A stretch of 64,000 bases of DNA from a virus (IMGVR_UViG_3300021420_000016:90049-154048), one strand, 5' to 3'; numbered from the stretch's first letter, positions 1-32,381 are shown. Program-made: numbers and translations. The notes: a model not told the origin generated them from the sequence alone.

Positions 1-16
1 ATGCAGCGGAGTGCGG

Positions 17-583
17 TCATGCCGGGATCTCCCACAGAACGCCCTGCGAGGCGGGCGGCGACTTGACTGGTACTGGCGTGGCCCGTACCAGCTCGGCGGC
101 CGGCATAGGCGTGCTGCGACGGCTGATTTTTCGGCCGGGCAACTGCTGATACACCCACAGGCCACCCTTAGTGAACCCCACATGCGACCACCCGGCGCGC
201 AGGTAGCACCAGCCTGGAATCTCCTTAGGCTTGGTCTTGCGCGGGTCAATGAAACTGACGATGCCCAGCTCGGGTACATCGGGCCACTCGGCACGCGTGT
301 GGGCGACCGCCCAACGGATGAGGTCCGATGCAAGGTGCGGGGAATCCTCTCGGCGGAACAAGCTATTCACCCACGCCCCCCCCCCCCATGCGTGCTTGAC
401 GTACTGCGCGTACGGCCAGGAGGTGACCCACACCGCCGAACGGTCTTCGGTGAGCAGCACGAAGCAGCTACCCGGCGGGACGAACTGCGGCGAGCCCGGC
501 TTCTGCCGGTTGTAATGCCGGTCGGCGAGTGGCAGCGCGGCGGGGTCTGCTCGATGGGAGCGCAGCCAGGGGGAGCCGGTCAC
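17..583 (-). CDS. Mom-like/GNAT-fold putative DNA base-modification protein
   Basis: DRHYNRQKPGSPQFVPPG and SFIDP..K..PGWCYLRAGW..VG.TKGGL motifs of a common phage family resembling Mom; coupled to the upstream MTase gene. Confidence 0.5.
   Translation of the reverse strand: MTGSPWLRSHRADPAALPLADRHYNRQKPGSPQFVPPGSCFVLLTEDRSAVWVTSWPYAQYVKHAWGGGAWVNSLFRREDSPHLASDLIRWAVAHTRAEWPDVPELGIVSFIDPRKTKPKEIPGWCYLRAGWSHVGFTKGGLWVYQQLPGRKISRRSTPMPAAELVRATPVPVKSPPASQGVLWEIPA
376..387. repeat. C12 homopolymer (G12 on coding strand) inside Mom-like gene
   Basis: Read directly; encodes WGGGAW. Confidence 0.95.
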
Positions 584-1089
584 AGCAGCACCTCCTGCGC
601 TAGCACGGTGGCCATGACGCCAGTACCGGGGAACAGGTCATCAAGCGTGTCCTCGCTGCCGATGTAGCCGAGCAGGTCGAGCACCCATCGGCAGAAGGGG
701 GGGGGGGGCTTAGCGCCAGTCAGCCCGCGCTTGAGCGTGATGACCTGGCTGAGGTGATCCCGGCCGACTGGTGCACCGGCCTTGGAGCTATCCCGCCCGG
801 GCCGGAAAAGGACGGGCTCCCAGGTGTAGGCGATGCGGACGTTCCGCTTGAATGCCGCGAACGGCTTGACCCAGGCCGCGACGCGGACACCGGCGGGCGC
901 GAGGGGCAGCAACTCTTGCAGTGAGGTAGACGAGCAACTGTAGGCCCAGCCGTCGTATTCACGGTCGAGGCGCAGCATTAGCGCTTCGTGCTCGTCTGTC
1001 TCATCCCAGCAGCCCCACGGCTCCTGGTGCCGGTGCTCGTACCGGCGGCAGCACCCAAGGTAGGGCGGGTCGGCGTAGGCGAACTTCAT
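580..1089 (-). CDS. Small amino (N6-A/N4-C) DNA methyltransferase-like protein
   Basis: N-terminal ADPPY catalytic motif and C-terminal DDLFPGTG SAM-binding motif; ATG 1089 overlaps upstream stop. Confidence 0.75.
   Translation of the reverse strand: MKFAYADPPYLGCCRRYEHRHQEPWGCWDETDEHEALMLRLDREYDGWAYSCSSTSLQELLPLAPAGVRVAAWVKPFAAFKRNVRIAYTWEPVLFRPGRDSSKAGAPVGRDHLSQVITLKRGLTGAKPPPPFCRWVLDLLGYIGSEDTLDDLFPGTGVMATVLAQEVLL
697..708. repeat. G12 homopolymer (C12 on coding strand) inside MTase gene
   Basis: Read directly; encodes KPPPPF. Confidence 0.95.
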
Positions 1090-1961
1090 GCTGCCACTTC
1101 CTGCTTCCGGGTGGTGGCATGGGCCGCCCGGGCCAGGGCCGTGTTGAGCGTGTCCCGTCTCAACCCGAGGCGTTCCGCGATCTGCCGGCGCACCAGTTCC
1201 GGCGCCACTGCGCGGAGCGGGTGCGAGGCCTCCAGTTCGGCGTAGTCGGCGGCGAGCTCGGCGGAGGGAGTGGATTTCTTGCGCCGCCACCCGACTGGGG
1301 CCGGGGTGTCCGGGTTGTCGATCTCGTCGTCGTCCCAGGCCATCGGGACCGGCCAGTTGTTCCGTTCGGCGCGCCTGCGGGCCATGGTGGCGGCTCTGCG
1401 CTGTCCCGGCGTGGCCGTAGGGGGAGGCTGATCCCACAACTGGTCGTAGGCGGCGCACATGCCCCGTGCGACGCGGGCGGTGACCATGGTTACCCGGCCG
1501 GAGACGATCGCTTCCAGGTGGTCGTGGCACATGGGCACTAGCGGGGCGATGCCTGTCCCGGTGTGCCCGCGGGCGATCAGCGCCTGGGCGCGCCGGCGGG
1601 TACCCGTGGCGTCTGTCGCGGCCCCGGCGGCGAGGGCGGCGGCCGGGTCGGCGAGAACCGTTCCGGCGGCGCGGGTGATCTGCGCGGCGTTGTGTGCGGT
1701 GACTGCGGGCTGCCCGCAGTACATCAGCCGGCTCAGTGTCGAGTAGGGGACGCCGGACAGTTCGGCGAACCTTCGCAGGCCGATTCCCGCGTCCATGCAC
1801 CGGCGGACGAGGGCGCGGGCTGGAGTGGCGTCAGTAGTGGTGTAGGGGGGCTTGGCTAGGGTGGCGTTCACGGCCGGGTTCCTTCTTAGGGTAGGGACTG
1901 GGCTGAGGGCCGGCGGCACGTGTACAGCGTGCGGCCGGCCCGTGGTCATGGTGGCGGTCAT
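1086..1961 (-). CDS. Phage multi-HTH DNA-binding protein
   Basis: GIGLRRFAELSGVPYSTLSRL HTH, DATGTRRRAQALIARG motif typical of actinophage regulators, C-terminal IAERLGLRRDTL HTH. Confidence 0.65.
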   Translation of the reverse strand: MTATMTTGRPHAVHVPPALSPVPTLRRNPAVNATLAKPPYTTTDATPARALVRRCMDAGIGLRRFAELSGVPYSTLSRLMYCGQPAVTAHNAAQITRAAGTVLADPAAALAAGAATDATGTRRRAQALIARGHTGTGIAPLVPMCHDHLEAIVSGRVTMVTARVARGMCAAYDQLWDQPPPTATPGQRRAATMARRRAERNNWPVPMAWDDDEIDNPDTPAPVGWRRKKSTPSAELAADYAELEASHPLRAVAPELVRRQIAERLGLRRDTLNTALARAAHATTRKQEVAA

Positions 1962-3355
1962 TTGGGACTCGCCGGAACGTGCTTGCCGCTGGCCGTCCAG
2001 TTGTCACTGGCCATGTCAACAAAGCGGCTGTAGTGTCCCTGGAATGCGACGGTCACTGTCGCCATCGGGCCGTTCCGGTGCTTGGCGATAATAAGGTCCG
2101 CTTCCCCGGTCCGGGGTGAGTCCGTTTCGTGCATATCCTCGCGGTAAAGGAGGATTACGACGTCCGGGTCTTGTTCCAAACTGCCCGATTCGCGTAGATC
2201 TGAGAGCAATGGGCGTTTATCACTGCGCATTTCCGGGCCCCGATTGAGCTGGGAGATAGCGACCACCGGCACGTGAAGCTCCTTGGCCAGCAGCTTCAGC
2301 GACCGGGAGATGTCCGACACCTCCTGCTGCCGGTTCTCCACCCGCCGGCCGGGGGTGCTCATCAACTGCAGGTAGTCCACGATCACCAGCCGCAGGTCGT
2401 GGCGCATCTTCAGCCGCCGGCACTTCGCCCGGATCTCCATCAGGGACATGTTCGGCGAGTCGTCGATGAACAGCGGCGCGCCGGCGATCTCCTCCATGCA
2501 CTGGGCGAGCCGGGCCCAGTCCTTTTCGGTCAACTGGCCGGTCCGCATTGCGTGCAATGGCACCCGCGCCTCCGCCGACAGTAGCCGCATGGTGATCTCG
2601 TTGCGGGTCATCTCCAGGCTGAAGATCGCCGTCGCGAGACCGTGCTTGATCGCCGCCGACCTGGCAAAATCTCCACCTAGCGTCGACTTGCCTGCGCCGG
2701 GCCTTGCGGCCACGACCACCATCTGCCCTGGGTGCAGTCCGTGTGTCAGGGAGTCCAGGTCGAGGAATCCGGTCGGCACGCCGGTGAGTGCGCCGCCGTT
2801 AGCGCCGATCGCCTCGACCTCGTCCATGGCGCCGGGGAGGATTTCGGCCAGTGACAGGTAGTCCTCCCCCGCCCGCCGGTCGGCGACCGCGTACAGTGCC
2901 GTTTCGGCCCGGTCGAGCATGTCGTCGGCGTCGGCGGTGGCGTCGTAGCCGAACTGGGCGATGCGGGTGCCCGCTTCGGCGAGGCGGCGCAGGATCGCCT
3001 TCTCCCGGACGATCCGCGCGTAGTACCCGGCATTGGCGGCGGTGGGTACTGACGCGAACAGGGTGTGCAGGTACCCGGCGCCGCCCGCCCTTAGGAGGGT
3101 GCCCTCTTTGCCCATCAGGTCGGCGACCGTGACCGCGTCGGCGGGCTCGCCGCGGGAGTACAGGTCCAGGATTGCCTCGTGCACCATCTGGTGCGCCGGG
3201 CGGTAGTGGTCGAGCGGCCCGATGATCTCGATGACATCCGCGATGGCGTCTTTCGACATGAGCATGCCGCCGAGGACGCACTGTTCCGCGGCGAGGTCAT
3301 GCGGCGGGATGCGCTCGAACCCGGGTGGCGGCGCGACGTCTGCCAGGGCGCTCAT
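1958..3355 (-). CDS. dnaB: Replicative DNA helicase DnaB
   Basis: PPHDLAAEQCVLGGML, AARPGAGKS (Walker A), FSLEM, IVDYLQLM, SQLNR, SDLRESGSLEQD, KHRNGP. Confidence 0.97.
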   Translation of the reverse strand: MSALADVAPPPGFERIPPHDLAAEQCVLGGMLMSKDAIADVIEIIGPLDHYRPAHQMVHEAILDLYSRGEPADAVTVADLMGKEGTLLRAGGAGYLHTLFASVPTAANAGYYARIVREKAILRRLAEAGTRIAQFGYDATADADDMLDRAETALYAVADRRAGEDYLSLAEILPGAMDEVEAIGANGGALTGVPTGFLDLDSLTHGLHPGQMVVVAARPGAGKSTLGGDFARSAAIKHGLATAIFSLEMTRNEITMRLLSAEARVPLHAMRTGQLTEKDWARLAQCMEEIAGAPLFIDDSPNMSLMEIRAKCRRLKMRHDLRLVIVDYLQLMSTPGRRVENRQQEVSDISRSLKLLAKELHVPVVAISQLNRGPEMRSDKRPLLSDLRESGSLEQDPDVVILLYREDMHETDSPRTGEADLIIAKHRNGPMATVTVAFQGHYSRFVDMASDNWTASGKHVPASPK

Positions 3356-4431
3356 GACACGGCTGCTTTCCTGTCAGCGGCGCAGGATGGGCATTCGGAT
3401 CCGGCCGCATGGCTGACGTGATGGTCCGGGCAGGTCACCTTCGGCCTGGGCGGCGGCGCGGTCCGGTCGCGGGCAGCCGCCCACCAGTAACCGTCGGCGT
3501 GCAGGCCGCCGGGAGAGTGTGATCTTTCATCGGCAGCGCGGATCAGCGCGGCAGCGCGGATCAGCGGCCAAGGGCGATCGAGGGTGTCGCGGTGGCACAG
3601 GGACTCGCGGATTGACCGTTCCGACCAGTCCGGGCGGATGGTGCGGATGGTGCCGACCAGTGCGCTGACCTCGCCGTCTGAGGGGGTTTCCTGGACTAGG
3701 CCCCCCTCCCCCGTTTGGGCGCCGGGAAGGCCGAACGGGACCATGGGCGACTGGGCCCAGCTTGCGCCGGGGGCGGGGGGATTGGGGCCAGGGGCGAGGG
3801 GCTTTCTTAGGGATCCACCGTTATTTCTCCCCTTCCCCCTGGCCCCCTGGGCACCGGGTAGGACACGGAGGTCGGCAGGGGCATCAGCCGGGCGCTCCGC
3901 ACGGTGGTCAGCAACCCCCTCCGCATGGCCCTGCGGAGGGGGGTCGGCAGGGCCCTGTGGGAGGGCATGGGCAAGGCGGGCGGGAAGGGCGTCCAGCAGG
4001 GCGATTACAGGTTCACGGGTCTTGTTGGTCAGTTCCTTCAAGGGAAGCCGGCCCAGTTCGCGGAAGATCACGGCGCGCAGCGTCGCCGATTCCACGCGCG
4101 CCGCGTCGGCGATGGCGATGGCTAGCACCTTCGGCTGCTTCCAGACCTCGTCGTTGCGGATCAAGGTGCGGATCAGCAACTCCCCGGTGTCCTCGTCCGC
4201 GATCGTGAACCGGGCTGCGCAGGTGTACTTCAGTGCGGCCGCGAGCGTCTCCTGGTCCCAGCCGATCCGGCGGGCCCACAGCCGCAGGTTGATCGTGATG
4301 ACGCCGCAGTGGCGTAGCTCCGGCTGGGCCAGCAGCATCTGGTAGAGGTTTTTCCCGTCCGGGTGCAGAGCGCGCCAGTCGTCGTCGTCGGTCCACATGG
4401 ACGCCTTGAGGCGCGCCTCGGTCCGCGGCAT
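3352..4431 (-). CDS. Phage replication initiator / replisome organiser
   Basis: N-terminal MWTDDDDWRAL..LYQMLLAQPEL.HCGV winged-helix type domain, Pro/Gly linker, C-terminal CPDH..CPSC; directly upstream of dnaB. Confidence 0.65.
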   Translation of the reverse strand: MPRTEARLKASMWTDDDDWRALHPDGKNLYQMLLAQPELRHCGVITINLRLWARRIGWDQETLAAALKYTCAARFTIADEDTGELLIRTLIRNDEVWKQPKVLAIAIADAARVESATLRAVIFRELGRLPLKELTNKTREPVIALLDALPARLAHALPQGPADPPPQGHAEGVADHRAERPADAPADLRVLPGAQGARGKGRNNGGSLRKPLAPGPNPPAPGASWAQSPMVPFGLPGAQTGEGGLVQETPSDGEVSALVGTIRTIRPDWSERSIRESLCHRDTLDRPWPLIRAAALIRAADERSHSPGGLHADGYWWAAARDRTAPPPRPKVTCPDHHVSHAAGSECPSCAADRKAAVS

Positions 4432-4670
4432 CAGACCTCGCCGCCTTCGGTGATGCGCTGGGGGATGGCCACGTTGCGGGCCACCTTTCCGGGGTCTCGT
4501 TGTGCAGTTAACTCACTACGCACCGGCAAGGGCGCTCTGTCCGGACTCTAGTCCGACAATAATACGGTTGCAAGTCTGTACTGGGGACTACTTTCAGGTA
4601 TGACACAGTGGTACGATTGCCCCAAGTCATGACCGGACGTCATGACCCATGGCCCTGAACTCCGAGGAGC

Positions 4671-4949
4671 GTGGACGAGTTGACCGACCCGCTGAACGAC
4701 TTGCTGGCCGAGCTTGCCCGCGATGCCGCCGAGGTCGAGGAGTACGACCCGAAGGCGGAGGCAGCCCGGCAGCGCATCCGGGACAAGCTCCCCCAAGCCC
4801 GCGCGCTTGGCGCCGGCCCAGCGGAACTGGAGCGCGCGATCCGCGGCATCTACACCGCGAAGTCCATCAGCCGCTGGACCGACGAGTCCGCACCCGGGGA
4901 CCAGCGCCGCGGCCGCCGCAAGCGCAACGGCGCACCCGTCGCCGCCTGA
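4671..4949 (+). CDS. Small HTH-like regulator, opposite strand to the operon
   Basis: GGAG RBS, GTG start, GAGPAELERAIRGIYTAKSISRW HTH-like; AT-richer spacer with two GTCATGAC palindromes at 4626 and 4639. Confidence 0.55.
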   Translation: MDELTDPLNDLLAELARDAAEVEEYDPKAEAARQRIRDKLPQARALGAGPAELERAIRGIYTAKSISRWTDESAPGDQRRGRRKRNGAPVAA

Positions 4950-4972
4950 TCTCGCACTCCCCCAGCCCGCCA

Positions 4973-6292
4973 TCACGCTGCCGTCTCCTGTAGCTGAGCC
5001 GGCGTCGCCTGCCGCTGGATGCCTGCCGCCATGGTGATCACGTGCTGGGCTAGCAGGGGCGGCATTGCGTTGCCGACCTGCTGGAACTGCTTGGTTTGGC
5101 TCCCCCGCCATGGATAGTCCGGCGGGAACGACTGGAGGACCGCAGCCTCCTGGACGGTGATCCGCACCGGCTCGGCCCGCAGCTCACCCGGGCCAGGTTC
5201 ATGTACCCACGCCGCCCAGTTGGACCGGCCACCGAAGAACAGCGTCCCTGCGGGCTCGTCCAGTGACCGCGTGCAAGCGTTGTTGTTGTTGTTGTTGTTG
5301 CGGAAGACCCACTGGCCAGCTCTCTGCGCGGCCGCGAGTGCGTCGCGGTCCCGGTGCCCGAACGGTTCAGCACCACCGGTGGCGGTCCCGCCGGCGGTGA
5401 CCGTCGGCGCCGGCCGGCCGGTCGCCCCCCAGCCAAGGACTTTCTCCATGGACACCCACGGGGTGCCCCACAGTTGCTCGCCGCCGCGCGGATCGTAATG
5501 CACTGGCGGCGGGCAGGACACGGGACGCGAGCGTGAGGCGATCAGGATGGCGCGTTGCCGGGTCTGCGGCACGCCATAGTCGGCGGCGTTGAGCTTCCCG
5601 CACCAGGTGCTGTAGCCGGCCTTCTGCAGTTCGTCTGCATACACCTGCCACAGGGGCAGCACGGCCGGCACCTGCTCCAGCGCCACCCATTCGGGCTGGC
5701 CGGCGTAGATGAACCGGGCCGGCTCAAGGACCAGGGAAGCCGACCGGACAGCGTCCCAGATCTTCGCCGATCGCTGAGCGCGGGTCAGGTGCGAGCCAGG
5801 CGGCGCGCTCGCCATGTCGCGCAGGCGCTTGTGGGGGGAGTTCCTTCGGGCCAGCAGTTTCCGCTTCCATGCCTGCTGGCGCTTGCGCCGCCATGCCTCG
5901 GCGGTCATCTGCGGGGTAGGTGATCCACCTAGCCACCCGGCCAGCCGCAGGGTGGTGACCATCTCTCGCCGCCGCCGTGCCCGGGTCGCCTGGCCAGCGA
6001 ACTGGTCCCGTATCCCGTCGGCGAGAATGGCGATCACCCCGAGCCCGGCGCCCAGGCCGGCCATGCTGAACACGATGCACGGCGGGCTGTGACATTGACC
6101 CCAAGTCTTCCTGGCTAGTCCTTCGACCGGGAAGGCGCTCATATCGGCGTGAATGGTCAGGTGGCCTGCAGCGGCGCGGGTGGCGCAGGCGGTGGCGTCC
6201 CGTTCAATGCCGATCGAGCGCAGGCCGAGCATGCGGAGCGCCTCGTCCCAGCCGCCGGGACCACCGAATCCGTCCAACACAAGGTCGCTCAC
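4973..6292 (-). CDS. C5-cytosine DNA methyltransferase
   Basis: DGFGGPGG (motif I), SPPC (IV), EQV (VI variant), PQTRQR (VIII), LQSFP (IX), QVGNA (X); GTG 6292 overlaps upstream stop. Confidence 0.92.
   Translation of the reverse strand: MSDLVLDGFGGPGGWDEALRMLGLRSIGIERDATACATRAAAGHLTIHADMSAFPVEGLARKTWGQCHSPPCIVFSMAGLGAGLGVIAILADGIRDQFAGQATRARRRREMVTTLRLAGWLGGSPTPQMTAEAWRRKRQQAWKRKLLARRNSPHKRLRDMASAPPGSHLTRAQRSAKIWDAVRSASLVLEPARFIYAGQPEWVALEQVPAVLPLWQVYADELQKAGYSTWCGKLNAADYGVPQTRQRAILIASRSRPVSCPPPVHYDPRGGEQLWGTPWVSMEKVLGWGATGRPAPTVTAGGTATGGAEPFGHRDRDALAAAQRAGQWVFRNNNNNNNACTRSLDEPAGTLFFGGRSNWAAWVHEPGPGELRAEPVRITVQEAAVLQSFPPDYPWRGSQTKQFQQVGNAMPPLLAQHVITMAAGIQRQATPAQLQETAA
5279..5299. repeat. 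(AAC)7 trinucleotide repeat encoding poly-Asn in the MTase variable region
   Basis: gtt x7 on + strand; FRNNNNNNNACTRS. Confidence 0.95.
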
Positions 6293-6933
6293 AACGTCAC
6301 CTCGGTGATGTGCAGGGTCACCTGGCCGCGGGGGCAAGTGCCGGGCAGTAGTTCGTAGGTGACCCGCCGGACGTGCTTGCGGCTGTCACCACCGCCGAAT
6401 ACCCCCGTGTCCGCGATGCCATCGATCAGATGCTTACCGGTGGGCGCGAGGTTCTCACTGTCCTCAATCCGCGCCGCGGCGAAGGGGTGACGGTCTTTGC
6501 GCCGCCTCGGTGGCGGCAGGTAGGTGACATGGATGTCGGCGCGGTGGATCAGTGGCAGGCGGCTGCTCCTCGCCGCAATCCCTCCGTGTTGCCGGAGCGT
6601 CTTGATGATCTCCGCTTTCGGGTGGAGGGACAGCCGGTTGTTGGCGGTGAGCAGTTCCATGCCGGCCGGGAACTGGATCGTCCACGTCCTGGGGTCACCG
6701 GCCGGCGCGCTTCCACCAGACACGCCGGCCGGCGACGTTTTCAGAGCCCCGCGGGGGCCAGCGGCAGGCCGGCCTGCCCGCGGGGCCTGCTCTCCTCGCG
6801 GGGATCGCCTGGGGGGCGCGGAGGAGAGCGCTGCGCCAGCCCCGATCGGGGAGCCGGGGGGCGCAGCAGGCACCACCAGCCGCGCGGCGGGCGCGGCCCT
6901 GGTGGTGCGTCTTGGGGTCCGGGTGGTGGTCAC
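6289..6933 (-). CDS. rusA: RusA-like Holliday junction resolvase
   Basis: LLTANNR, RRRKD, D.ENLAPTGKHLIDG..D.GV..GDS pattern. Confidence 0.65.
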   Translation of the reverse strand: MTTTRTPRRTTRAAPAARLVVPAAPPGSPIGAGAALSSAPPRRSPRGEQAPRAGRPAAGPRGALKTSPAGVSGGSAPAGDPRTWTIQFPAGMELLTANNRLSLHPKAEIIKTLRQHGGIAARSSRLPLIHRADIHVTYLPPPRRRKDRHPFAAARIEDSENLAPTGKHLIDGIADTGVFGGGDSRKHVRRVTYELLPGTCPRGQVTLHITEVTL

Positions 6934-30458: not shown

Positions 30459-31399
30459 GTGCATTACGTGGTGGAGGAGGGGGGGCCTCGGGACGGCGGT
30501 CACTGGACCGCGACCTGGATAGGTCACCTCGGCGGGAACTGGCAACTGCTGCTCACGGACTCCGCCGGCGCCGTCAAGCTGGACGAGCCGACGCAAATCT
30601 CCAGCGCCTACCCGCGTCCCGGCCCCGGAGTCCTGGAAGCGCTGGATGTGGAAGTTATCCCGGGCACCACGTGGACGCAGTCGGGGACCGCGAGCGTGTG
30701 GTTTTCCCGGCCGGTCAAACCGTGGAAGCGGGCTCCAGGGGAGCCAGCACCCTCCTTAGCCGCTTCGTAGCGGGCCCCTTACCCTCCGGATACATCAGGC
30801 TTCTCACCTGCCTCACCTTCACCCGTATTTGTGAATCACGTTTTAGGATGTACGAGTACGGCGCACAGGGACGTGCGCCCGGGCGGGAGGGAGCCCGGCA
30901 TGGGGGGGACTGGCGCGCTGCGAATCTCTGCGCCATGGGAGATCACCACGGCCCACGCACCACCGGCGCTCGCGGAGGAAACCCCGGACTGGTGGGCTTA
31001 CGCCGCCCAGTACCCGCGCTGGCACGTCTGGCGCGGCGTCGCCGGCCTGCTGTACGCGCGCAGGCCGCGGACCAGCCCGCCGTGGATCGTCCGCGCCACC
31101 GACCCCGACGAACTCGCGCAGAAGGTGGCCCTCCGCGAACGCGGCCAGCGGCCCTGCTGGTGACCCTCTTCGAGCTCGCCCGGCTTCCCCGCGTCGCCCT
31201 CATGGGGGAGTACCTGCGCACCCTCGACCGCAGCGACCGCATGGAACTTGCGCGCGTGGCGAACATGACCCGCGAAGCGCTCGTTGCGGCCATCATGGGC
31301 GACCCGGACGGCGGCCGGCGGCTGCGGGCCATGGCCGCGGCCGAGCGCCACCTCCAGGTGGCCCTGGGTAAGCTGCGTGACCAGCGTCACGCCGCGTGA
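30459..31399 (+). CDS. Three small hypothetical genes (30459-30770; 30900-31163; 31160-31399)
   Basis: ORFs; GTGA overlap at 31160. Confidence 0.5.
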
Positions 31400-31458: not shown

Positions 31459-31468
31459 CCCCCCCCCC
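31459..31468. repeat. C10 tract in the 5' region of the 31518 gene
   Basis: Read directly. Confidence 0.9.
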
Positions 31469-31517
31469 TGTGTGCAGCCCCTTCCTCCCGCCGCCCGCCA
31501 CGCGAGGTGATGCCGTC

Positions 31518-32381
31518 TTGCCTTCGTCCGGCCGCAAGTCCTGGGAACACTCGTTCGACACCCGGGAAGAGAACGCGCGATGGCGAGCGAACAGCGGCCA
31601 CCGCAGAACGGCCGGGCCCCGGGAAACCCCGTGCCCTGGCGGGTGCAATGCGGCCTGGCGGCGGCAGCAGCGGCTCCTGGACGCCTACCAGCGGTCCATG
31701 GAGGCCTGGCAGGACGATCCCTCCGGTAGCCCGCCGGCTGAGCCCGAGACGCGCGCCTTGTCGCCGTATCCGGGGAACCCGTTCTGCAGCAACGACCAGG
31801 CGGTCTACCGGCGGCTGCTCGGCGAAGTGGACGACCTGGCCGCCATCGCCATCCGGCACAACGACGGGCACCGCAAAGACCCCGACGCCGAGCGCGTGTC
31901 CGGTAGCCGCGGCACCCGGTCCCCGTCGGCGACGATCGAGGAACTCGACCACGTCGCCTCGGCGTTGCGGGACTGGGAGGCCACGGCGCGGGATCTGATT
32001 CGCAAGCAAGCCGGCCGGCTCCCCAGCGACGAAGGCACCCCGCCACGGCGCGGGTACCTGGCCAGCGAGATCACGACCAGTGTGAGCTGGCTGGTGGCGC
32101 ACTTCGAGGTGCTGATCACCGACGCCGACGCGGCCGTCCCGTTCGCTGCGGAGATCAGCGAGTGGCATGAGCGGCTGAAGAAGCGGGAGAAGGCCGGCAC
32201 GGGCCGCAAGCACATGAAGCGCCCCTGCCCGCGGTGCGACAGGTACAGCTTGTACCAGGAAGACGACGCTGACTACGTAGCGTGTGCGCGCCCTGACTGT
32301 GGGCGGCTTATGGCCTGGGGGGAATGGCTCACCTACGCCGACACCTTCGCCCAGCCCACGGCGTCCGCCGGTGCGGCCTGA
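31518..32381 (+). CDS. Phage protein with C-terminal zinc ribbon (possible late-gene regulator)
   Basis: GAGGTG RBS + TTG; PCPRCDRYSL..VAC...CG; followed by an HTH gene. Confidence 0.65.
   Translation: MPSSGRKSWEHSFDTREENARWRANSGHRRTAGPRETPCPGGCNAAWRRQQRLLDAYQRSMEAWQDDPSGSPPAEPETRALSPYPGNPFCSNDQAVYRRLLGEVDDLAAIAIRHNDGHRKDPDAERVSGSRGTRSPSATIEELDHVASALRDWEATARDLIRKQAGRLPSDEGTPPRRGYLASEITTSVSWLVAHFEVLITDADAAVPFAAEISEWHERLKKREKAGTGRKHMKRPCPRCDRYSLYQEDDADYVACARPDCGRLMAWGEWLTYADTFAQPTASAGAA

Follow-up and report, generated by a model that had tools for sequence, protein, structure and literature searches.

Two neighbouring G/C homopolymers as probable on/off switches in a methyltransferase gene and a GNAT gene of an uncultured soil actinophage

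Can simple-sequence repeats lying inside putative DNA-modification genes of a phage switch those genes on and off and, if so, which of the repeats can do it? The question is raised by one end of a viral contig, hereafter the window (IMGVR_UViG_3300021420_000016:90049-154048, the whole stretch of 64,000 nucleotides (nt) that was analysed), which corresponds to the terminal 64 kb of one 154,048-bp contig (68% GC) held as an IMG/VR virus record and 98% complete according to CheckV. The public runs containing window DNA are all soil metagenomes, and the source is an uncultured soil actinophage of 154 kb. An earlier reading made without database searches (the sequence-only reading) reported a 12-nt homopolymer in a gene that it called Mom-like (the GNAT-fold gene encoding P0001), a second one in the adjacent small amino methyltransferase (MTase) gene (encoding P0002), and an (AAC)7 repeat in a C5 cytosine MTase gene, and proposed that slippage at all three varies the modification state of the progeny. 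The repeats are indeed where it placed them, and all of them are in frame:

376-387, minus strand: G12 tract in the P0001 gene (C12 on the plus strand), read tGG GGG GGG GGG Gcg, that is W-G-G-G-A; in frame.
697-708, minus strand: C12 tract in the P0002 gene (G12 on the plus strand), read aag CCC CCC CCC CCC ttc, that is K-PPPP-F; in frame.
5279-5299, minus strand: (AAC)7, that is N7, in the C5-MTase gene ((GTT)7 on the plus strand); in frame.

The answer that we favour, with a probability of roughly 60%, is that both 12-nt G/C runs are hypermutable contingency loci in two adjacent and coupled genes of an early/replication operon. The two genes that carry them are probably random on/off switches of the kind known in phages. 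The slippage proposal is thus retained for the two homopolymers, which are length-polymorphic among otherwise identical genomes and have ON and OFF alleles in the GNAT clade, and is abandoned for (AAC)7.

The first line of evidence concerns the genome background. In the whole 154,048-bp contig no homopolymer exceeds the two 12-mers, which are followed by one C10, one C9 and four 8-mers, and no trinucleotide repeat is longer than (GTT)7, the runner-up having 5 units. Two G/C runs of at least 12 nt, lying 310 bp apart, are observed against 0.013 expected (by extrapolation of a run-length decay of x0.23 per nt). Both runs are also built from minority codons, CCC accounting for 33% of Pro and GGG for 29% of Gly codons in this genome, where other poly-Pro and poly-Gly stretches mix their codons. 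The comparison with homologues is in line with this picture. The P0002 segment reads G-A-K-P-x-x-F (7 residues) in 132 of 135 non-redundant relatives, the 8-residue GAKPPPPF being found in the window alone, and the P0001 segment reads H-x-W-x-G-A-W in all the 80 GNAT relatives from IMG/VR and W-GGG-A-W in the window. Each tract therefore adds one codon to the family pattern, and both 12-mers look like 9-nt runs grown by 3 nt. The third-longest homopolymer, the C10 at 31459-31468, lies between the stop of an open reading frame (ORF, 30671-31399) and the start of the gene that follows directly downstream, ORF 31470-32381, whose product is a phrog_1568 DNA-binding protein (with homology from residue ~102); perhaps this C10 is a further slippery tract, located in a leader or promoter.

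As regards the GNAT tract, 22 of the closest full-length relatives of P0001 (62-82% identical) carry W-G-G-A-W, and all four GG-type relatives for which DNA is available, from four samples and 70-81% identical to P0001 by BLASTP, have a pure G9 at this site (TGG GGG GGG GCT), their flanking codons being different. A search for short products retrieved six proteins that break off just past "WGG", their tails being those predicted for shifted frames (GGLGE*, GGRG*, GGGLGEF..., GGP*). The DNA of three of them has G7, G8 and G10, respectively, at the tract codon, with the remainder of the GNAT in another frame. Across eight loci, window included, the tract length is thus 7, 8, 9, 9, 9, 9, 10 and 12: the four G9 genes and the G12 gene are intact (ON), and those with G7, G8 and G10 are frameshifted (OFF), to which the three other truncated proteins can be added. 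Within the list of short proteins, where one retrieval bias applies throughout, a frameshift at the site is present in 6/9 of the GG-type fragments that cross it vs 1/22 of the AG/PG-type ones (Fisher p = 7e-4). Contingency loci are recognised by such a combination, in which a pure run survives this much divergence although its codon is a minority one and OFF alleles are frequent in nature, and on this comparative evidence the GNAT tract appears to be an old, conserved, switching contingency tract.

The genes of the GG-clade lie in different early-gene neighbourhoods, being found directly downstream of genes for WhiB (L242), DnaB (L239), a 500-residue PF01555 MTase (L240 and L238) or a small MTase (window, L179 and L189), always with a 4-nt overlap or a tight spacing.

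What slippage would do to the two genes can be followed in silico. A change of +/-1 or +/-2 nt in the P0001 tract, which in the structural model lies in the loop preceding strand beta-4, brings in a stop 2-3 codons past the tract and yields a product of 71-73 amino acids (aa) that ends before beta-4 and all the conserved core residues, while lengths of 9 and 12 are in frame. The P0002 tract lies between the invariant K127 and the helix running to motif I; the same changes yield products of 148-163 aa in which the last ~40 residues are replaced and motif I, FPGTG, is lost. Such a frameshift also displaces the MTase stop from the GNAT start, and this may weaken the coupling of the two genes. The formation of a fusion or of an alternative ORF was considered and discarded, every shifted frame of both genes stopping quickly and no alternative frame being conserved.

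The second line of evidence comes from four independent assemblies of essentially one phage. The alleles of two of them, the European Nucleotide Archive (ENA) contig and the 8.8-kb contig from the Joint Genome Institute (JGI), were deduced from gene lengths plus one protein sequence (P0005):

Window (JGI, 154 kb): MTase tract 12; GNAT tract 12 (188 aa).
Logan contig from soil run X2 (a different sample and study): MTase tract 9; GNAT outside the contig.
ENA contig of 106 kb (ERZ27253567): MTase tract 13, C9-A-C3 by parsimony, out of frame; GNAT 188 aa, identical.
JGI contig of 8.8 kb (sample 3300050821): MTase product 169 aa, identical; GNAT 187 aa.

Over window positions 689-1075 the X2 contig shows zero substitutions, the replacement of G12 by G9 being the only difference, and this G9 is a return to the canonical length of the MTase family. 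In the ENA contig, the GNAT and C5-MTase proteins are the same as in the window and the small MTase has 149 aa and ends KPPPTLLPMGARP, which implies a 13-nt, out-of-frame tract. In the JGI 8.8-kb contig, whose 291-aa neighbouring protein is again that of the window, the downstream coordinates leave a single length change, namely the loss of 3 nt within the GNAT gene, for which the tract is the obvious candidate. The 291-aa protein (phrog_1590), unchanged across three strain-level contigs, served as the anchor of these comparisons. The alleles of the two tracts do not co-vary among strains (12/12, 13/12 and 12/187 aa). Runs X3 and X4 cover neither tract, and in IMG/VR patterns anchored in the flanks of the two tracts brought up no near-identical contig. 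The Logan contigs of run X1, the probable source of the window, carry C12, G12 and (GTT)7 too, yet they break at both 12-mers, one break falling exactly at 699, which is the branch point expected for the ENA allele (G3-T-G9 on the plus strand). The k-mer depth in X1 is 5.7 between the tracts (388-696) vs 9.5-9.9 in the flanks, positions 420-434 being without any listed contig; either the degradation of reads behind long G/C runs or branching between alleles could account for this dip.

Alignment to homologues separates the two tracts by age: the GNAT tract is conserved in its clade, and the MTase tract is confined to the window lineage, so that, as far as can be judged from the relatives at hand, it appears to be recent and young next to the GNAT tract. 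Where MTase relatives have K-P-P here, the two Pro codons are CCG CCG, and KPPQF, KPPEF or KPARF is found in the closest proteins. Across the MTase family, runs of at least 8 nt are more frequent in the genes (6 in 65 kb) than in the flanking DNA (4 in 518 kb; p = 1.5e-5); since synonymous-codon shuffles do not bear this excess out, family-wide selection for tracts in MTase genes is suggestive only. Runs of 8-10 nt occur in L052, L061, L072 and L176 (residues ~59-65, all in one loop ahead of the conserved R-V-A-A-W-V-K-P strand), in L069 (~139) and in L041 (~78), and frameshifts are located at the G10 of L069 and the C8 of L072. Runs of exactly 7 nt are strongly depleted with respect to synonymous shuffles (runs of at least 7: 6 vs 18.2 expected in 135 MTase genes, and 3 vs 10.8 in 76 GNAT genes), and runs of at least 8 nt are at expectation, which gives a bimodal length distribution.

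As for the genomic setting, positions 1-6400 hold, on the minus strand, an operon of replication-type genes and, upstream of it, the C5-MTase gene:

4973-6337, minus strand: C5 cytosine DNA methyltransferase (PF00145), upstream of the operon; probable start GTG at 6292, 439 aa.
3352-4431, minus strand: replication initiator.
1958-3355, minus strand: DnaB.
1086-1961, minus strand: phrog_1590 gene, 291 aa, no assigned function, directly upstream of the P0002 gene.
580-1089, minus strand: P0002, small beta-class amino (N6-A or N4-C) DNA methyltransferase, 169 aa.
17-583, minus strand: P0001, GNAT-fold gene, 188 aa, phrog_24928; best solved-structure match phage Mu Mom.

The P0002 ATG overlaps the stop of the 291-aa gene (ATGA) and the P0001 GTG overlaps the P0002 stop (GTGA), and these successive 4-nt overlaps indicate translational coupling. 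The C5-MTase gene scores 75.7 bits against a 22-bit cut-off and is the sole PF00145 gene of the genome, in which the MTase families PF02086, PF05063, PF05869 and PF01555 have no match, the controls for two of these searches being silent as well. P0002 has the motifs of a beta-class amino MTase, with DPPY at residues 7-10 (motif IV, N-terminal) and FPGTG at 153-157 (motif I, C-terminal), both invariant or nearly so in 35 homologues. Its AlphaFold model (predicted local distance difference test, pLDDT, 85) matches M.BceJIV, CcrM, M1.HpyAVI, M.PvuII and M.MboIIA in Foldseek (E 4e-5 to 1e-4, template-modelling (TM) score <=0.66), and no sequence match was found for it in Pfam (including N6_N4_Mtase, PF01555), NCBIfam or the PDB. 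The family to which it belongs is a short, divergent branch of the beta class; it is large, with more than 6,000 matches among small phage and metagenome enzymes. An obligatory pairing of MTase and GNAT was rejected, a GNAT being present at 3 of 153 MTase loci and an MTase of either tested type lying directly upstream at 2 + 2 of 80 GNAT loci. A homologue of the small MTase in the cultured Xanthomonas phage PBR31 (MT119766.1, 29801-30264) is annotated as two hypothetical proteins; its split was considered as a tract switch and discarded, since the break falls near W-V-K-G-F, with no long homopolymer, and points to a plain frameshift or sequencing error.

The identity of P0001 requires more caution. 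The sequence-only reading had spoken of three DNA-modification genes, one of them Mom-like; the two MTases bear this description out, and for P0001 the resemblance to Mom is, judging from the structural model, one of fold only. The AlphaFold model (pLDDT 78) has a GNAT fold and matches Mu Mom (8bv8) in 140 residues that are 17% identical, with Z 11.6, other GNATs reaching 10.8 and thus being tied within 1. In the ESM Atlas, its structural neighbours are a Mom (PF25680) cluster (TM 0.61) and clusters of the Druantia protein DruA (0.59-0.63). A weak hhalign comparison of the P0001 profile with Mom (E = 0.08) pairs the invariant S86, D113 and Y127 with S124, D149 and Y159, respectively; in the same alignment the essential R111 of Mom stands opposite the invariant G69, and R115, opposite R151, is not conserved in the P0001 family. 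In Mom, the catalytic residues are R111, S124, D149 and R151, and a helix-turn-helix (HTH)-like insertion (~175-209) is essential for momylation (PMC13219725). In the P0001 model the GNAT core stops at residue ~150, the rest being a disordered tail; the structural alignment spans residues 1-156 of the model and 37-239 of Mom, and the HTH-like insertion is absent from the model. Neither P0001 nor 35 members of its family have a Pfam match at E <= 10, and a search of the whole genome with PF25680 gave none either, the controls of that search being silent. Kinship at the sequence level with Mom or any PDB chain was also looked for, and nothing was found.

If the two tracts are contingency loci, the following scenario can be envisaged. 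Replication slippage would alter the length of each run; at lengths of 9 or 12 the gene would be ON, and at other lengths the GNAT would be cut after residue ~70 or the MTase would be left without the motif I that binds S-adenosylmethionine, that is OFF. Populations would accordingly mix up to four states (MTase +/-, GNAT +/-), and switching would be fast and reversible within a population. The GNAT would act in the modification of DNA or other nucleic acids. Modified DNA would be spared where modification blocks the restriction of the host, and unmodified DNA where restriction is modification-dependent (type IV), and the mixture may be a hedge between these two kinds of host. Strong methyl-specific restriction is known in Streptomyces, many of which attack methylated DNA. 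The frequent OFF alleles together with the conserved G9 suggest that the GNAT activity pays on some hosts and carries a cost on others. A more specific version of this scenario, which we regard as rather doubtful, would make the GG-clade GNAT a Mom-like hypermodification enzyme acting on DNA (or dependent on aminoacyl-tRNA), with a selected G9 switch paired with the newer MTase switch, so that one burst would release four epigenetic types, whose plating would depend on whether an actinomycete host has classical or methyl-specific restriction; in this version, pairing between the complementary tracts in the mRNA possibly also links the expression of the two genes.

Several points weigh against the two tracts being switches. 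The strain evidence consists of contigs, and is not a read-level distribution of lengths in one population. The OFF alleles of the MTase amount to a single one, which is interrupted (C9-A-C3), is known at the protein level and may share the sample of the window, and in the 187-aa GNAT the position of the 3-nt loss is not directly visible. Most strain alleles (12, 9 and 12 for the MTase; 188 and 187 aa for the GNAT) are in frame, which fits purifying selection on a mutation-prone site equally well. The MTase tract is missing from relatives at 75-82% identity and could be a recent neutral expansion, and the excess of MTase runs of at least 8 nt is not significant when intact genes are compared with synonymous-codon shuffles (5 observed vs 3.4 expected, P = 0.21).

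The last three of these observations are also what would be expected if the tracts were non-adaptive mutational hot spots, grown by slippage in hosts that repair insertions and deletions (indels) poorly, with OFF alleles representing deleterious mutants in the course of being lost and mutability itself being unselected. To our knowledge, Actinobacteria are without MutS/MutL, and NucS does not correct indels. This is a real alternative, above all for the young MTase tract, even though on the whole we consider it possible rather than probable. It does not easily explain why a pure G9 made of a minority codon has been kept in at least four relatives whose flanking codons differ, the chance of GGG-GGG being 0.08 per lineage. 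Moreover, the avoidance of runs of exactly 7 nt in both families implies that selection is able to remove tracts, yet it keeps the one in the GNAT gene, and the two longest runs of the genome occupy adjacent genes.

A role at the RNA level appears improbable. According to this idea, either RNA polymerase slips on the 12-mers and makes mixed-frame mRNAs, or the two tracts, being complementary, base-pair within the polycistronic mRNA and thereby regulate the MTase/GNAT junction. Both the minimum-free-energy and the centroid fold of the minus-strand transcript (350-735) do pair the tracts in a 13-bp G:C helix around the MTase stop and the GNAT start, and L240 has a C9 (locus 1439, a PF01555 MTase, K-PPP-V) 270 nt upstream of its GNAT G10. 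However, the fold is no better than those of shuffled sequences (z-score -0.82), no complementary C run lies nearby at 7 of the 9 GNAT loci with a G run, translation in the shifted frames stops at once and none of these frames is conserved, and the strain alleles do not co-vary.

Even less probable is the possibility that (AAC)7 acts as a third switch, slippage changing the number of Asn residues and retuning the specificity of the C5-MTase, as had been suggested from the repeat itself. It is true that this is the longest trinucleotide repeat of the genome, that it lies within the target-recognition region, in the motif R-N7-A-C-x-R-x-x-DEPAGTLFFG, and that the closest cluster representatives have N5, N6 or N7, the distant ones having N-rich variants such as NNTNA and NGNQA. 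However, two IMG/VR relatives that are 58% and 52% identical (L234 and L235) have an exact (AAC)7, three strain-level assemblies encode one and the same protein, and a change of frame is impossible. Since AAC accounts for 89% of Asn codons, (AAC)7 is the default spelling of N7 and would arise ~43% of the time (0.887^7 = 0.43). The repeat is therefore a conserved Asn-rich loop written in the default codon and not an on/off device; nothing suggests a rapid change of its length, and the idea that the Asn tract tunes specificity through its length is not upheld. The target-recognition region of the C5-MTase homologues (P0246-P0299 alignment) consists of a variable number of tandem modules, W-x-L-R-N-x-x-x-N-A-x-x-R-x-x-DEPAPT-x-x-FG, and the proteins range from ~310 to 775 aa mainly through the gain or loss of such modules.

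Finally, a sequencing or assembly artefact, in which homopolymer miscalls would create the 12-mers or the apparent differences in length and which had been put forward as the main alternative, is the least probable of all, because the breaks and the depth dip of the X1 contigs (5.7 vs 9.9), the low depth of the X2 allele (2.9) and the odd A within the ENA run are outweighed by short-read assemblies (151-nt contigs, k-mer graphs) from platforms without homopolymer overcall, by the recurrence of both 12-mers in Logan as well as JGI assemblies instead of their disappearance from short-read data, by a 169-aa product in a JGI contig of another sample, and by two in-frame tracts and eight related loci from different studies with a run at one codon.

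The idea that the two G/C runs are contingency loci would, if correct, have some practical consequences. The Mom/DruA-like GNAT clade would represent a widespread, uncharacterised family with a conserved G9 and frequent natural OFF alleles, and hence a good place to look for phage activities not yet described, be it in nucleic-acid modification or in anti-defence. Annotation pipelines will call genes with such tracts split or hypothetical, and tract length is worth recording as a population variable.

How does this locus compare with known systems? Mu Mom shares with P0001 the GNAT fold, the location on a phage and an adenine-type MTase as neighbour, and differs in being controlled by Dam, OxyR and Com, whereas P0001 carries a repeat tract. 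Bacterial phasevarions (Type III mod, Type I hsd) also rely on the slippage of a repeat within an ORF to turn DNA methylation ON and OFF, but they are chromosomal restriction-modification components that rewire host gene expression, whereas P0002, an orphan enzyme of 169 aa, belongs to the replication operon of a phage; it does not qualify as a mod or hsdM/S subunit, standing alone between the phrog_1590 gene and the GNAT gene, with no partner restriction gene seen. Homopolymer phase variation has been documented in Actinobacteria, e.g. in the 7C tract of M. tuberculosis glpK (PMC10334774). With these cases the present locus shares G/C homopolymers, a high-GC replication system and frameshifts, which in the host genes are reversible; those are chromosomal genes with runs of 7-9 nt, whereas here runs of 9-12 nt are found in phage genes.

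The closest parallel is the A9 tract in the alpha-glucosyltransferase gene agt of phage T2, a measured contingency locus at which escape from TgvAB is traded against sensitivity to McrA/BC (Gomez, Barrick & Waters 2025, bioRxiv 10.1101/2025.10.21.683753). In both systems a homopolymer lies in a phage DNA-modification gene (putatively so for the GNAT), +/-1 slippage gives null alleles, and hedging between types of restriction has been proposed. They differ in that T2 has an A9 in an AT-rich coliphage, with rates and trade-off measured, whereas here G/C runs of 9-12 nt, known from sequence, occupy two adjacent genes, for an MTase and a GNAT, of a 68% GC actinophage. The same source cites G runs of 7-11 nt in phage coding sequence that create subpopulations, namely in the receptor-binding genes of Campylobacter Fletchervirus phages and, as a poly-G tract, in the methylase of a Bordetella BPP-1-type phage (cited in 10.1101/2025.10.21.683753). 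The Campylobacter phage tracts act on adsorption and not on DNA modification, and in neither case does the tract belong to a Mom-like GNAT clade in which it is conserved. What is new with respect to all these systems is that the tracts occur in a high-GC actinophage of soil, that they come as twins in coupled genes, both ON and expanded, and that a tract is conserved in a Mom/DruA-like GNAT clade; if the proposed role is correct, high-GC soil actinophages would join coliphages, Campylobacter phages and gut phages among the phages with contingency loci.

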